Numbered from the whole stretch's first letter, positions 511 to 19,680 are shown. The stretch: DNA of 22,670 nt, filler included, from an uncultured virus (IMG/VR IMGVR_UViG_2061766007_000649) (2 parts of one record of this genome joined end to end with filler, not necessarily neighbours in it); one strand, 5' to 3'. A program made the numbers and translations. Notes: generated by a model from the sequence alone, not told the origin.

Positions 511-700
511 TACCGATACGCTATTAATTCTCTAAAATCAAGAATATACCTATACTTTTCAAAGAAGCGATTTCCCAGAATACCATGTAATTTGATGCCA
601 CTTTCTTGTTCAATAGTACTAAATGCAGCACTTAAATCAATAGCACCAAATTCTTCAGTAAACTTCTGGTCTTTATATCCTATCTCTATAGAATAATGAT
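510..700 (-). CDS. C-terminal part of a retropepsin-like (clan AA) aspartic protease
   Basis: Not in the ORF track. Manual translation HYSIEIGYKDQKFTEEFGAIDLSAAFSTIEQESGIKLHGILGNRFFEKYRYILDFRELIAYR*; GILG..F..Y..ILDF matches the retropepsin C-terminal motif. The catalytic D[TS]G is not visible. Confidence 0.65.
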
Positions 701-710
701 NNNNNNNNNN

Positions 711-1182
711 CCGGACTCAGCAACAAAACAGGCCCTAGTTTCAGCATCAGCAGGCAAATTCAAGAGATTAACATATTCAATATTATCTGCTTTATCCTTA
801 CCCCCCGATGTAATTCTGGTAGTGTCTGCTCCCATTTGCTGGNNNNNNNNNNNNNNNNNNNNNNNNNNNNNNNNNNNNNTACCGGATTGATTTGCTCTAA
901 AAAGTTTTCTCCATAAGTAGATGTAACTTTAACAGCTTCCTTATATTCTAGATATAGTGGGATGAGACTACATTTATCAGCTTGTGGCTTTAAAGTTTTA
1001 GCATNNNNNNNNNNTCTCTTTGTCTTGTACAACAACATCTACTCCATATTTCTTAAATACAGGGATTAATTGTTTGGCGCTATTCCAATTGATTGATACT
1101 TTAGGAGTTAAGTCAAAGGCTTCTTCTCTGAATAAATCACCTTGAACATCAACATAGATATAGGGAGAATCTGGTATATTCT
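711..1182 (-). CDS. polA: Internal fragment of a family A DNA polymerase (thumb to start of palm), out of order and flanked by N gaps
   Basis: Manual translation of three gap-separated pieces: QGDLF...INWNSAKQL; LYLEYKEAVKVTSTYG; QMGADTTRITSGG...NLLNLPADAETRACFVAESG (cf. PolA N.NS.KQL, K..STY, TGRLSS, NLQNIP, R.AF.A..G). Confidence 0.85.
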
Positions 1183-1226
1183 NNNNNNNNNNNNNNNNNN
1201 NNNNNNNNNNNNNNNNNNNNNNNNNN

Positions 1227-1238
1227 TTAATTAATTAA
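1227..1238. other. TTAATTAATTAA island between N runs; probable artificial contig/scaffold linker
   Basis: Palindromic 12-mer with stops in all six frames, isolated between two N runs. Confidence 0.6.
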
Positions 1239-1282
1239 NNNNNNNNNNNNNNNNNNNNNNNNNNNNNNNNNNNNNNNNNNNN

Positions 1283-1355
1283 GATGAATCCATTCCATAA
1301 CTAGAACTGCAATACATACAAGAATAACGAAGGCAATTAAAATTAGTTTATCCAT
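1283..1355 (-). CDS. N-terminal membrane anchor, probably of the aspartic protease ending at 510
   Basis: MDKLILIAFVILVCIAVLVMEWIH; ATG overlaps the dUTPase stop (TAATG); the frame runs into an N gap. Confidence 0.55.
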
Positions 1356-1779
1356 TATTTACCTGTACTTCCAAATCCACCATCTCCTCTCTCTGTCTTA
1401 GCCAGTTCTTCAACTTCTAAGAACTCCACTTTTNNNNNNNNNNNNNNNNAACTCTATCTCCTACCTGATAAGGAGGTGTTGCAGGAATATCGTCTCTGTA
1501 CTTATACATCAACATCAACTCTCCAGTGTAATCACTATCTAGCACTCCAACATGATTAGCAAGATAATAGCTGGTTTTTCGGTTAGAACTTCTTGGGAAT
1601 ATAAGCATTACATAGCCTTCAGGGAGCTGGAATGACAGTCCTGTATGGTATACCCAGCAATCATTCTTTGCGTCATATTCTCTACTAGTAGCAGTCACAT
1701 CCATTCCTGCACTTCCAACAGTAGCATATGTAGGTATTACTGCTTTATCAGTTAGCTTTTTTATCTTTACTTCAATCAT
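1355..1779 (-). CDS. dut: Trimeric dUTPase
   Basis: AGMDV, PRSS and GVLDSDYTG motifs; after the gap the frame reads KVEFLEVEELAKTERGDGGFGSTGK* (motif 5). Confidence 0.96.
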
Positions 1780-3918
1780 TTAGACTTTCTTTTTTAGCAT
1801 AGAACCTAGTCTGAGCTTCCTTATATCTCTCCTTGTCAAAGTACTTGATAGGTCTTAAGAACCCAATAACCCTTGTCCACCAAGANNNNNNNNNNNNNNN
1901 NNNNNNNNNNNNNNNNNNNNNNNNNATAGGATGCTTAGTAATAAAATGACAGTCATCACATTCACTATTAGGAATATTAAATGTGAAGTATGATGTACCA
2001 TAGTGAATAGCAACATTAATTAGAGATAGATACTGTTCCTTACTAAGGTGCTCTTCAAGATTACAATGTAACCCTACTCCTCCATCCAGCAATTCTGTAA
2101 ACTCCTTACCATGAAGCTTGAATTTATCAAGTATAGTAGTCTTGGGGTCAGATGCAATATAGAAATAGGAGTTATAAAGATTTCTNNNNNNNNNNNNNNN
2201 NNNNNNNNNNNNNNNNNNNNNNNNNNNCCAACCATAGTTCTTACTGGACAGTCCTTCTGCAGGAACTAATTCAGTATTGAACTGAAAATCTTTAGTAGAA
2301 TGAAGTTTATTTTGCTCTGAGATAGTTCCTGTAATAAGCCTACAGAACTCTTTATACTCATCATTATAGTTGCATTTAATTCCCAAGAATTCAGCTGCTT
2401 CATTAAGACCATTAATACCAATAGTATTAAACAATTNNNNNNNNNNNNNNNNNNNNNNNNNNNNGCATCTTCAACTTCATAGAGTAAAGTTTTATAAGCA
2501 ATGTGATACTTATAAACCTTTTCAAGAATGCCTATAAGATACTCGTGTAGGTCTGCCCAAGAATTTCTAGCATCTTCTTGAGTCCAGTCTCCCCTGTTAG
2601 CATCCATCATCATCTTACTCCAATCCTGAATAATCCTGTTAAGATTAAGAGTAATCACATTGGCACTGCCAGTTTGAACTCCAGTAAGACCATTAGTAAA
2701 AGAGAAGACATTCTCTGCAATTTCATTTCTGAGTCTGCAGCAAGAGGCCAAAGCATTGGGATTATCAGAGATATAAGTAAAGAAGGAATGTCCTTTGCTA
2801 TACATTTCTGCAACAAAATCTTTCCATTCTGTATCCTTGATGTCTCCATCTTCACTAAGCAATGCAACTGTTTCAACAGGAAAGGTTAATAGAGTCTTAG
2901 TTCTCTCATTATTAAACCATTCCATAAAGTCATGCTGCAGCCAGTTAACTCTCTCCCATTTGGGCTGTGTACCATCAGGGAAATAGAAATCATCAAACAG
3001 CGCGTGCCAATAGTTCTCATCATAATAAGAAATATTGGTAAACGGCGACTGATAACTTCTATTACCTGCAGGCTGATTCCAACCATAGACAATCTGCTGA
3101 TAGGCTTGATGAATGGCATCAACTATCTTTCTCTTAGGAAGTTCTGATGCTTCAACTCTATAAGCCATCTCATGATAGAATGGCCCAAAATCTTTGACAC
3201 AGAAGTAATCCAAGAAATTGAAGAACTCTCCAAATGCTACGGCTCCCTTACATTGGGCAGAGAGAAGGAAGGTTANNNNNNNNNNNNNNNNNNNNNNNNN
3301 GAACTAAGATTCTTTGGGGCAACAGTTCCTAAACCATCCATTCCCTTTGTACCTTCTACAAGTAGGGGATATAGAGAAACTGCTTCACAATAATTCTTAA
3401 CTGCTGGGGAAGACGCTTCATCATGAGCATAGATAATGTGGTGTTCAAGGTCCTTTACATATTGGTCAGCAACTTCAGGGAATTGCTTCTCAAGTTGCTT
3501 AGTCATTCTATACCTTTGAATCTGTCTATTGATTGACTTGTATACCTCACCATCAATGTTTGCCACATTCTTGATTGCCACATTTGCATTGGCATCTGTT
3601 TCTGACGAAGTGGCAGCATTTTNNNNNNNNNNNNNNNNNNNNNNNNNNNNCTTTATGTTTCTCTCTATAAGAGTGATAGGCAAGGGCAGTATCCCATTCT
3701 CCTGCAGCAATTATACTTTTGACAACATCATCTTGAATATCCTCAATGTCAGTAATACTGTCATCTGAATGCTTCATTTCAACTGTGTCATGTACAATTT
3801 TCTGTACAAGTTCTGGTACTGCCTTACCCTGAGCATCGAATGCCTTTTTGACAGCGTTGTCAATCTTCTCCCAACTAAAGGGCTCTAAACTCCCATTTCT
3901 TTTTCTTACATTAATCAT
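1772..3918 (-). CDS. nrdD: Anaerobic (class III) ribonucleoside-triphosphate reductase with N-terminal ATP cone
   Basis: Merged from four ORF-track pieces: VRKRNG ATP cone, YCEAVSL, QSPFTNIS, SCCRLRN finger loop, CDDC, WTRVIGFLRP glycyl-radical loop. Confidence 0.93.
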
Positions 3919-8149: not shown

Positions 8150-9222
8150 AAGATGCAAGTAATTCAATGTATTTATCTATATATTTATTCTTTACAGGCA
8201 AAGATTCAAGTTCTTTAGCAATATCAATAGATAACTGATCGGGGGCAACAGCATCCTCCTTAGTATCATCTATACTATACCAAGTTAAGAACTCAATGAA
8301 GTCAGTGGCCCAATATTCAAACAGGAGCATTCCATTCTCTCCTTTACCAAATCTGGCATCAAAGCGCTTCTCCATAGAATCAAGGGCTTTTTTCATATAT
8401 CCAGCATCTCCTTTAGTATAAGTAACATTACCAGTAACTAACTGAGAGACAATGCTATTCACTAGGTCAGTGGTATCAGGCCCTGACTTTGTGGCTTNNN
8501 NNNNNNNNNNNNNNNNNNNNNNNNNNNNNNNNNNNNNNNNNNNNNNNNNNNNNNNNNNNNNNNNTTAGTATTATCATCTTTATGAAGCTGATAGTCCTTT
8601 CCCCAATACTTTGATGTATAAGAATCTGGAGTATAAATGTTTGTAGTAGTCTTTACTGCTTCCTGCTTGGCTTTCTTAATCTCAGCCAGCCTGTCAGCAA
8701 CTTCTACAAAGGGATTCTCAGTAGGCTTTTCAAATTCAATATCAAGATTGAAGTATTCAATCTCTTCTCCTTCAATAGTCTCCTGATGCCCATCACTGAC
8801 AGTACCTCCAAATCCTTCATAAGAGAAACTCCTGACAGAAGTATATTTAATCTTCCTAGTAATTGCTGCTGTATACTTACCGGCATTATTTACAATAAGA
8901 GACACAAAATGGTTCCTCTCATTTCCTTCTTCTTGAAGCGTGGCTAAATCAGTACCACTAAAGAAAGTGCTCATGTTGTTATGAGAATGGATAAGTCCCA
9001 TCTTATAATCAAGAAGCTCAGGATGCTGAGCCATATAACTGATTACATCTGGAGACATATTAAACTCAGTATAAGTAGTGCTACCAATATCCATAGGAAG
9101 AATATCTTCACACCTGATTTCTAATGAGCCATCTTCAAAATTTCCTGAAGGAGTATAGAATAGAACTCCCGACCACTCGGTGTCCCACACTCTCTCGCAG
9201 AGGAAGCGGATTAACTTCTCAA
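8133..9222 (-). CDS. JAB/MPN+ (JAMM) metallopeptidase with C-terminal extension; start lies in gap 9223-9292
   Basis: EWSG followed by HSHNNMSTFFSGTD = HxH-x7-S-x2-D (8948-8989). The 8133-8462 ORF is open back to the gap and is probably the same protein. Confidence 0.88.
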
Positions 9223-18930: not shown

Positions 18931-19007
18931 TGGTAGTGGAGGTGAGATTTGCACTCACTATTTCGACTTTATAAGAGTCGTGCTCATACTCAATTAGCAT
19001 CTCCACT
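18931..19007 (-). tRNA. tRNA-Ile(UAU) with encoded CCA
   Basis: AGTGGAG/CTCCACT acceptor stem, CGACT-CTTATAA-AGTCG anticodon arm, GTGAG-TGCAAAT-CTCAC T arm, ACCA end. Confidence 0.85.
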
Positions 19008-19011
19008 ATTG

Positions 19012-19093
19012 TGGGCTACCTCAGACTCGAACTGAGACGCTTCTAAAGCACAAGTTCCTAAGACTTGCGTGTCTACCATTTCACCAGTAACCC
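19012..19093 (-). tRNA. tRNA-Leu(UAG)
   Basis: GGGTTAC/GTAGCCC acceptor stem, CAAGT-CTTAGGA-ACTTG anticodon arm, long variable arm, CTCAG-TTCGAGT-CTGAG T arm, discriminator A. Confidence 0.93.
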
Positions 19094-19097
19094 AAAG

Positions 19098-19680
19098 TAC
19101 CAGAGGTGAGAATCGAACTCACACGGACATTGCTGTCCAGCAGATTTTCATACCACTATAGTTTTCACTACCAAAAGAGATACTTATGAAGCCTCGTCAT
19201 TCTATATCTCCACGAGTAAACTAATCGTTTCTGCCTACTCCATAGCAGAATTAATACTCTCCGAGATAAGCGAATGTCTTCTGTTTGATGGTCTGGACTT
19301 TATCTTAACCATATTGAAATCTGCACAGTAATTATCTCTTCTTAGCTACAATGATTAATGTGGTTTCAGCTCCACCGATTTGATAACATTTCAACTTAGG
19401 TTCCTCCTGTATAGTCTCTACACACTGTCTTTCAGTACCAACTCTAAACACACAGATTTACTGTGGTAAGGACTGATAACATTGGCTCGGTATTAGCATA
19501 TATTTAATCGTGCTGTTCATCTATACACCAAACAGGCAAACGGTGATGTGTAGTCTGTTTCCAAATGGGTATTTAACCTAGACTCTTATTAAATACTTAG
19601 CCTTCACCGAATTAGGGAGGTTCTACTATAATCTTTCAACTATAGCACTCAAATTTAATTAATTAAGTCTGCCGTGTCTA
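19098..19680 (-). tRNA. tRNA-Leu(UAA), intron-split (3' exon 19098-19148; 5' exon from 19665 into the N gap)
   Basis: Joining the exons gives GCAGA-CTT^AAAA-TCTGC; variable arm GGACA-GCAA-TGTCC; T arm GTGAG-TTCGATT-CTCAC; D-arm remnant TAGACACG. Confidence 0.88.
19149..19664 (-). ncRNA. Group I self-splicing intron (trnL-UAA/IC3-like), 516 nt, no ORF
   Basis: P AATTCGGTGAAG (19602-19613), Q AATACCGAGC (19485-19494), R GTGTAGAGACTATA (19410-19423), S AAGATAAAGTCC (19295-19306); P1 ACUU/GAGU with U.G at the splice site; P2 GAAA loop; terminal omega-G. Confidence 0.9.

Follow-up and report, generated by a model that had tools for sequence, protein, structure and literature searches.

Can a transfer RNA (tRNA) gene of a bacteriophage be split at its anticodon by a group I intron that is still intact? 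The question is raised by positions 19098 to 19680 of a stretch of 22,670 nucleotides (nt), filler included, from an uncultured virus (IMG/VR IMGVR_UViG_2061766007_000649), hereafter the window, in which a first-pass annotation made from the sequence alone had proposed such an intron in a tRNA-Leu(UAA) gene. According to our analysis, the element is a group I intron whose structure is intact and which occupies the classical Leu(UAA) site, it lies in a tRNA gene of a crAss-like phage, and it belongs to a phage-borne, site-hopping lineage; its splicing is predicted from sequence.

A tRNA-Leu(UAA) gene interrupted between U34 and A35

Read on the minus strand, the gene carries a 516-nt insert, from A19664 to G19149, between U34 and A35, as the first-pass annotation had described it. 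What is visible of the 5′ exon (19665..19680, minus strand) is its 3′ end, namely the end of the D arm, the 5′ strand of the anticodon stem (GCAGA) and C32 U33 U34, and it terminates in GGCAGACTT / GGCAGACUU at 19665. The 3′ exon (19098..19148, minus strand) starts AAAATCTGC and runs from 19148 through A35 A36, UCUGC, a long variable arm, the T arm and CUCUGGU to the discriminator A at 19098; it gives a weak, partial match to RF00005 (17.3 bits). With a slash at each cut, the junctions in the window read ...GACUU/AAUU...UAUG/AAAAUCUGC. The intron itself (19149..19664, minus strand) matches the group I intron family RF00028, has its omega-G at 19149 and takes its boundaries from an intronless allele in an IMG/VR contig (L021), which reads GACUUAAAAUCUGC at the same site. 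This allele is an uninterrupted tRNA-Leu(UAA) of ~86 nt (RF00005, 56.8 bits) followed directly by a tRNA-Leu(UAG), as in the window. All 16 visible bases of the 5′ exon and 50 of the 51 bases of the 3′ exon are identical in the two (66/67), and the protein neighboring the L021 locus shows 59% identity to its window counterpart. Judged by sequence, the empty site in L021 is the strongest single result for the predicted boundaries, and together with the minus-strand reading it bears out the proposed insert. As the intron starts with AA and the 3′ exon with AAAA, the cut can formally slide by up to two bases; we chose the cuts 19665/19664 and 19149/19148 because group I rules call for a U paired with G ahead of the 5′ cut and for a G ahead of the 3′ cut. 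A more distant relative (L012) also has an intronless tRNA-Leu(UAA), located ~6.5 kilobases (kb) upstream of the primase gene, compared with ~7 kb in the window.

The window contains 42 masked patches, one of which covers the start of the split gene, and ~19 nt at the beginning of the 5′ exon (acceptor and D arm) lie inside that masked stretch. With the start of the 5′ exon masked, ARAGORN with introns allowed gave no call for the joined exons of the window. The masked runs may also differ in length from the true sequence.

Ribozyme core and RNA-library evidence

The Infernal check suggested by the first-pass annotation succeeded in part: RF00028 matched 19670-19278 with an E-value of 2.6e-8 (1.1-kb search, E-value reporting) and the P, Q, R and S elements of the intron aligned to its consensus, at 39.4 bits, that is, below the gathering score of 50. 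A 21-nt word from the P3-J3/4-P4 region of the window intron retrieved 15 IMG/VR loci, in 12 of which we placed the boundaries by hand; with the window, this gives 13 introns. All 13 have U at position −1 and G at omega. RF00028 performs weakly over the whole phage lineage, reaching E ≤ 0.001 in 2 of the 13 loci and 50 bits in none, and its seed holds no bacterial sequence (Williams, 2020, bioRxiv 10.1101/2020.01.27.920355).

On the minus strand of the window, P1 (19647..19668) pairs the exon ACUU and the intron AA (19668-19663) with the guide UUGAGU (19652-19647); within it, U19665 pairs with a G of the guide GAGU at the 5′ splice site. P2 (19626..19645) is a hairpin of 8 base pairs with a GAAA tetraloop; the hairpin is found in all 13 homologs with stems of differing sequence, and the GAAA loop in 12 of them. 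P3 joins CCUCC (19620-19616) to GGAGG (19407-19403) in five pairs, with 100% of the cells paired across the 13 sequences. The core pairings P4 (19611-19605 with 19492-19486) and P5 (19602-19600 with 19497-19495) follow; P5 encloses a ~100-nt extension (19599-19498) that is unique to the window among the sampled introns, and its middle pair is GC in five sequences, CG in four, AU in three and GU in one. P6 (19481-19479 with 19428-19426) carries an extension of ~50 nt and shows two-sided changes in two of its three pairs. P7, formed by GACU (19416-19413) and AGUC (19299-19296), is by homology the guanosine-binding helix and encloses the 3′ strand of P3 as well as P8 (19401-19399 and 19394-19388 with 19320-19314 and 19310-19308), which has a ~65-nt extension. 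Finally, P9.0, formed by ACCA (19292-19289) and UGGU (19155-19152), encloses a unique extension of ~118 nt and P9, the hairpin UAGU-GAAA-ACUA at 19170-19159; compensatory changes occur in both P9 and P9.0. The P1 U·G pair, P3, P7, P9.0, the terminal G and the P/Q/R/S elements named in the first-pass annotation all fell into place on this structure map. RF00028 had placed P9 at ~19290-19278; we rejected this placement and set P9 at 19170-19159, since 19149/19143 is where the tRNA junction, P9.0 and the bacterial profile described below all end.

All 40 core pairs that we defined are standard pairs in the window. Over the 13-sequence alignment these pairs (P3-P9, 512 cells) are paired in 98.4% of the cells, and nine of the 40 show two-sided changes. 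None of 500 shuffles scored as high, and sliding the 3′ partners by one to three columns lowered the value to 26-44%. We excluded P1 and P2 from this formal count and judged them sequence by sequence, because MAFFT had put P2 of the window out of register by one column and had also misaligned P1 in two homologs (L029 and L035). The largest open reading frame (ORF) found in the intron has 39 amino acids, and a PHROGs scan of the 33 ORFs of the window returned no homing-endonuclease match.

RNA contigs were available from three size-fractionated RNA libraries of one bovine-gut study, as assembled contigs. Contigs of 119-195 nt match the window with one or two differences, and three of them lie over segments unique to the window intron (19410-19601, 19401-19595 and 19465-19627). 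Some RNA contigs join the 3′ end of the intron head-to-tail to its 5′ region, and similar joints exist for other members of the family. One such joint, at a depth of 38, reads ...19146, seven other letters, 19654-19603, and includes the window intron's own P2; as RNA, it has the terminal G immediately followed by an intron start whose P1 loop is slightly altered. From its sequence, it looks like the joint that a circularized full-length intron of a close variant should contain. No head-to-tail joint appears among the rows listed for the DNA run. No RNA contig was found on 18934-19133 or 19184-19283, and this lack of cover is no evidence in either direction.

Bacterial kinship and a phage lineage in many tRNAs

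That group I introns occur in the tRNA anticodon loops of cyanobacteria, plastids and certain other bacteria is textbook knowledge. Class Leu.3Ug is defined as CUU/a...g/AAAA (Williams, 2020), and the window insert lies between the third and the fourth base of the anticodon loop of tRNA-Leu(UAA), as this class requires. We ran a pattern of the P, Q and R words TTCGGYGAA, CCGAGCCAA and GTAGAGAC over bacterial assemblies, one genome per species, and obtained at least 120 bacterial loci; ARAGORN found a split tRNA in at least 105 of these, and the site was resolved in at least 101. Among the matches listed, the resolved sites were Leu(UAA).3 (40), CAU.2 (25), CAU.5 (19), Arg(CCU).5 (7) and others (10). 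The four named sites are classical classes, all of them IC3 in the group I intron database used for validation (Williams, 2020). No cyanobacterial sequence occurs among the bacterial matches listed (at least 120 loci), and the comparison with cyanobacterial and plastid introns rests on the class definition. The initial proposal that the intron shares the site and type of the cyanobacterial/plastid trnL(UAA) intron therefore stands for the site (Leu.3Ug) and, by the P/Q/R pattern, for the type, with the qualification that the phage introns form a separate clade.

A profile built from the 40 bacterial Leu introns matches the window in three colinear pieces (19669-19599, 19423-19285 and 19177-19143); the profile reaches six bases into the 3′ exon by construction, and the last piece accordingly stops at 19143, which is consistent with the predicted 3′ splice site. 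The 3′ architecture of these bacterial introns is that of the phage intron, with P9.0, a P9 with a GAAA-type loop and the ending ...GUGGU..G/. They share with it the tRNA and the site, U-1 in a U·G pair, the terminal G, the P/Q/R words, a GAAA-capped P2 and P9, and a P9.0 just before omega-G. They reside, however, in cellular genomes and measure 212-277 nt (13 examples), whereas the window intron belongs to a phage and owes its extra length to the extensions in P5, P6, P8 and P9. IC3 introns have a compact architecture, marked by GAAA loops on both P2 and P9, a P2 without P2.1 and a plain P5. In the window intron, P2 and P9 carry GAAA loops and P9.0 is present, yet P5, P6, P8 and P9 have extensions of ~50-118 nt. 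We dropped the idea of naming one closest bacterial class, as the summed nhmmer scores were alike (~35 for Leu.3 and ~37 for CAU.2).

In a tree of 114 introns, the bacterial introns were arranged by tRNA class, and the 13 phage introns formed one clade (SH-aLRT 99) whatever their host tRNA. The phage intron falls outside the clade of the sampled bacterial Leu introns and represents a separate phage lineage; a caveat of this tree is that the phage rows are AT-rich relative to the rest. The intron phylogeny recommended at the outset has thus been run against bacterial tRNA introns, with cyanobacterial and plastid copies outside the tree. The site of the bacterial CAU.5 introns, CUCAU/AA, is also used by three phage relatives (L024, L027 and L030), but the phage introns at this site resemble the phage Leu-site introns far more than they do the 19 sampled bacterial CAU.5 introns. 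The phage intron and the bacterial CAU-site (Azoarcus-type) introns presumably also resemble each other in L2/L9 docking. Circular intron forms in Azoarcus, as given in the accessible part of one article (PMC13168695), match the head-to-tail RNA joints of the phage intron family.

The phage lineage occupies several tRNAs. Splicing in silico restored canonical tRNAs in 11 of the 13 loci (ARAGORN 112-125), the exceptions being the masked window gene and L020, whose exons are chimeric. Leu(UAA) is interrupted at CUU/AAAA in the window, L022, L028, L029, L035 and L036, and at CU/UAAAA in L026; Leu(UAG) is the host in L032, Ser(UGA) in L033, and a tRNA with a CAU anticodon, cut at CUCAU/AA, in the three relatives named above. 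The guide tracks the exon: GAGU lies opposite ACUU/ in the Leu introns, GUG opposite CAU/ and GGUU opposite GACU/, while at the Ser site GAGU lies opposite UCUU/ and three of four positions pair. As read from the sequences, such matching of guide and exon is what a working P1 would require. A second scan, with a word from R-P3′, found 38 loci, of which 10 were left unresolved by the automatic splice-site script, and extended the list of host tRNAs to Arg(UCU), Gln(UUG) and Lys(UUU). The script wrongly labeled at least L192 and L194 (the introns of L035 and L036 again) 'tRNA-Stop' when it slid along a T run, and in L163, L181 and L191 the loop positions or the flanks are at odds with a split anticodon loop. 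The contigs with resolved split tRNAs of this lineage range from 29 kb to 393 kb in IMG/VR. In the sampled genomes of Bacteroidota, the presumed host phylum, the R-P3′ word occurred in 1 of 401, a figure that covers the genomes searched. Given this single hit and the lack of any match in 50,697 GenBank phage records, the lineage is so far one of uncultured phages. Bacterial tRNA introns keep to one tRNA class, whereas this lineage is found in at least eight tRNA sites with matching guides.

The window intron is a mosaic. Its positions 15-70 are 98% identical to the Arg(UCU) intron of L157, and positions 235-383 (the P8 region) are 95% identical to the tRNA-Lys(UUU) intron of L161; its P5, P6 and P9 extensions have no match in the sampled introns. 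In L020, the closest relative at the window locus (80% protein identity), a homologous intron of 427 nt has a type-I tRNA 5′ half on one side and a tRNA-Leu(UAA) 3′ half on the other (255-772 in all), with mismatched acceptor and anticodon stems. The start of this intron equals that of the Arg(UCU) intron of L157, by which the 5′ half is Arg(UCU)-like; no matching partner half was found on the L020 contig. In crAss-like relatives, a tRNA-Arg(UCU) lies ~2 kb upstream of the tRNA-Leu(UAA). With an Arg(UCU)-type intron start and such a tRNA-Arg(UCU) in relatives, L020 can be explained by recombination between intron copies or by mis-assembly.

Other members of the lineage show further peculiarities. 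L035, on a 393-kb contig of a very large phage, has an ORF of ~160 amino acids with an HNH motif in the P1 loop of its tRNA-Leu(UAA) intron (812-1788, minus strand). In L023, on a 177-kb contig, the intron copy lacks tRNA exons as well as a clear terminal G, and an intact tRNA-Leu(UAA) lies ~100 nt downstream. By eye, the P5 and P9 extensions in the introns of L027, L035, L020, L022, L029 and L036 contain hairpins like tRNA T arms, with GGTTCGAATCC-type loops; the window's own extensions show no clear hairpin of this kind. On the 36-kb viral contig of L033, a transfer-messenger RNA (1420-1821, plus strand; RF00023, 107 bits) directly follows the split tRNA-Ser(UGA). Beside the split tRNAs of L022 and L027 we noticed, respectively, a match to abiF RNA (1861-1897, minus strand; 49.8 bits against a gathering score of 37) and a RAGATH-1 hammerhead (525-590, plus strand; 50.3 bits, just under 56.3). 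ARAGORN with introns allowed also calls an Ile(tat) with a 247-nt insert and a Leu(caa) with a 363-nt insert in L026/L031 (110-452 and 1970-2312) and L036 (1845-2300). These split calls may be false, as ordinary Rfam tRNAs overlap part of the spans. Lastly, crAss-like relatives (L013:418-528, L017:1349-1459, L014:511-584 and L015:1439-1514) show matches of 111 nt to RF00005, possibly tRNAs with an insert, as well as ARAGORN calls with a four-base anticodon 'tttg'.

Interpretation, host phage and other phage introns

In our reading, the element is a true, ORF-less group I intron with four peripheral extensions; its type is that of the compact bacterial tRNA introns, for which IC3 is the usual class. 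It sits in the tRNA-Leu(UAA) gene of a crAss-like phage and is most likely a selfish passenger of a phage lineage, and we put the probability of this reading at roughly 85%. The data show its anatomy, boundaries and covariation, how the family is distributed and that it is present in RNA libraries, whereas we infer the route of spread and, from the established chemistry of group I introns, catalysis. In the precursor, exon ACUU would pair with the internal guide GAGU to form P1, with U34 in the U·G wobble, and a free guanosine held in P7 would attack after U34. P9.0 would then bring the terminal G19149 into the same guanosine site, where the freed 3′-OH of U34 could attack after G19149 and join CUU to AAAA; the joined exons would present the UAA anticodon in a normal 7-nt loop, and the excised intron might circularize. 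An unspliced transcript would leave the phage without this tRNA-Leu(UAA), so the ribozyme must work if the gene is to be useful. The intron is most likely a selfish passenger of a lineage that circulates among phages and has colonized at least eight tRNA sites, presumably by changing its guide, and that exchanges outer domains between copies.

Several points weigh against this reading. The acceptor and D arms of the window gene are masked and so unseen, and the intron is missing from the default scan, its RF00028 match falling short of the gathering score. The structure was derived from the same 13 related sequences that served for counting pairs, and the phage set was gathered with conserved words of the window intron, so that the coherence of the clade is partly built in. 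The fold energy of the whole intron is no better than that of shuffles (z −1.09), a measure that is uninformative for a pseudoknotted ribozyme. The four extensions, which make up ~330 of the 516 nt, could slow folding or make it dependent on proteins, and the mismatched exons of L020 show that such genes can decay. As for the RNA, the evidence is indirect, as it stems from assembled contigs of one study and RNA libraries may contain some DNA; the head-to-tail contig departs from the window sequence both in the P1 loop and upstream, and represents a close variant, not the exact sequence. No ligated-exon junction occurs among the joints listed, although with 16 nt of usable 5′ exon it would hardly be detectable.

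A rival reading is that the intron is a decayed relic unable to splice and that the tRNA-Leu(UAA) is a pseudogene carried along in the tRNA cluster. The odd or dead relatives (the core without exons in L023, the mismatched halves in L020), the score under the RF00028 cut-off and the large insertions in P5, P6, P8 and P9 fit such a view. The 40 core pairs, the U·G pair, omega-G, P9.0 and both GAAA loops are nevertheless intact in the window, the exons differ from the intronless allele at one of 67 visible bases, RNA contigs cover unique intron segments and include head-to-tail joints, and low RF00028 scores are general in the lineage; we consider a relic improbable. Slightly less so, but still unlikely, is an intron that benefits its phage by delaying or gating the supply of tRNA-Leu(UAA), or by shielding the gene or its precursor from host nucleases that recognize an intact anticodon loop. 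It would agree with a lineage confined to the anticodon loops of many phage tRNA species, and with a role of phage tRNAs in countering tRNA-cleaving host defenses, as set out in the accessible part of one article (PMC11555353). In 11 clean ORFs of the window, 39 of 182 leucine codons are TTA, which makes use of the tRNA probable. Against a benefit, the close relatives L021 and L012 are intronless at the same gene, the L035 copy contains an ORF for an HNH endonuclease, as is typical of selfish homing, other copies lack exons or have chimeric ones, and nothing in our data links the intron to timing or defense.

The least probable alternative, to which we give very little weight, is that the assembly misjoined an intron repeat common to several phages to tRNA halves. 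Conserved intron blocks are present in many co-resident phages, with a depth several-fold above that of the flanks, and the hybrid exons of L020 could be such a misjoin. One DNA contig of 1688 nt, however, spans 19071-19680 with the 3′ exon, the whole intron and the visible part of the 5′ exon and without any difference, although its run may be the source sample; both exon parts fit one tRNA that is uninterrupted in L021, and the same architecture recurs at 11 independent loci. Beyond the reading of a selfish intron in a phage tRNA gene, we tentatively raise a bolder possibility, which we regard as rather doubtful: that the lineage is essentially phage-dwelling and hops between anticodon loops (two positions in Leu UAA, Leu UAG, Ser UGA, CAU, Arg UCU, Gln UUG and Lys UUU) by re-tuning a guide of 3-4 nt, swapping outer domains like cassettes and recombining. 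Retargeting would most simply proceed via reverse splicing into tRNA transcripts, and recombination between intron copies could fuse or delete tRNA genes, as the Arg/Leu hybrid of L020 suggests. If this were true, phage tRNA clusters would be a natural arena for RNA-guided intron transposition.

The host of the split tRNA is a crAss-like (Steigviridae-like) phage of the bovine gut. The genes of the window, all of them on the minus strand, make up a replication module of phage type with, among others, DNA polymerase A, dUTPase, ribonucleotide reductase, nucleases, primase and helicases. The primase shows 64% identity to that of uncultured phage cr128_1 (Crassvirales, Steigviridae) and 56% to that of Bacteroides phage crAss001, and related IMG/VR contigs of 98-102 kb have direct terminal repeats; the "probable Bacteroidota phage" of the first-pass annotation is sound on both counts. 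The public runs that contain the stretch are labeled bovine gut metagenome. Megablast of 19.7 kb of the window against the 50,697 GenBank phage records found no match, blastn of the 583-nt feature against the same records found none at E ≤ 1e-5, and the exact 43-nt word of the 3′ exon had no match in IMG/VR. Four nt downstream of the split gene lies a tRNA-Leu(UAG) (19011..19093, minus strand; ARAGORN and Rfam), in the same order as in L021, followed by a tRNA with anticodon UAU (Ile) at 18934..19007 (minus strand; RF00005, 48.3 bits), whose homolog in L020 is a tRNA-Ile(tat) by ARAGORN. Default ARAGORN and Rfam at the gathering score report only these two uninterrupted neighbors, so the expectation that standard annotation would overlook the split gene was correct. 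Since default tRNA finders and the Rfam cut-off miss such genes, phage tRNA repertoires are undercounted, and with them the arguments on codon usage and recoding that build on these repertoires. Elsewhere in the window, the ribonucleotide reductase (1772-3918, minus strand) appears as four ORFs in differing frames, and every change of frame falls at a masked patch; this is probably an effect of masking rather than of frameshifts or introns.

Classical phage introns (T4 td, nrdB and nrdD; Twort; SPO1 DNA polymerase) are likewise of the self-splicing type and located in lytic phage genomes, but they interrupt protein genes, usually with homing-endonuclease ORFs, whereas the window intron sits in a tRNA anticodon, lacks an ORF and is of bacterial tRNA type. 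A 2014 review states, in its accessible portion, that all phage introns seen until then were in protein-coding genes, despite the many phage tRNA genes (Hausner et al., 2014, PMC3984707), in agreement with what the first-pass annotation had said of them. The accessible parts of papers on introns of crAss-like phages deal with protein genes only (PMC7886860, PMC10136315, PMC12386605), one of them calling the Delta and Zeta groups intron-rich (Yutin et al., 2021, PMC7886860), and the survey of Williams (2020) covered bacterial and archaeal assemblies only. In the full-text literature, with subscription journals and supplements outside the scope of the search, we found no description of a group I intron in a phage tRNA gene. 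The present case overturns the generalization that group I introns of phages are found in protein genes only. The lineage further provides a naturally occurring series in which target change by a ribozyme can be studied, and a source of compact and extended ribozymes predicted to splice and circularize. Giant viruses of amoebae also have tRNA genes interrupted near the anticodon (PMC11946776); as far as the accessible part of that article goes, these are ARAGORN predictions in eukaryotic viruses, with other positions and sizes, and none is characterized as a ribozyme.

Finally, we came across two other group I introns in relatives of this phage. In a 98.6-kb relative with terminal repeats (L018:1466-1717 region, contig 46280-46568), one with 51.6 bits splits the DNA polymerase A gene between the protein parts ...NSPTQG and ...VHDE. 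The other is an unannotated intron in cr128_1 (L019:2548-2817, plus strand, which corresponds to NC_055885.1 ~8221-8490; RF00028, 86.1 bits). It is located between a tRNA-Arg pair and the replication genes, an annotated 'endonuclease' on the opposite strand overlaps its 3′ end, and its flanks are not tRNA-like.

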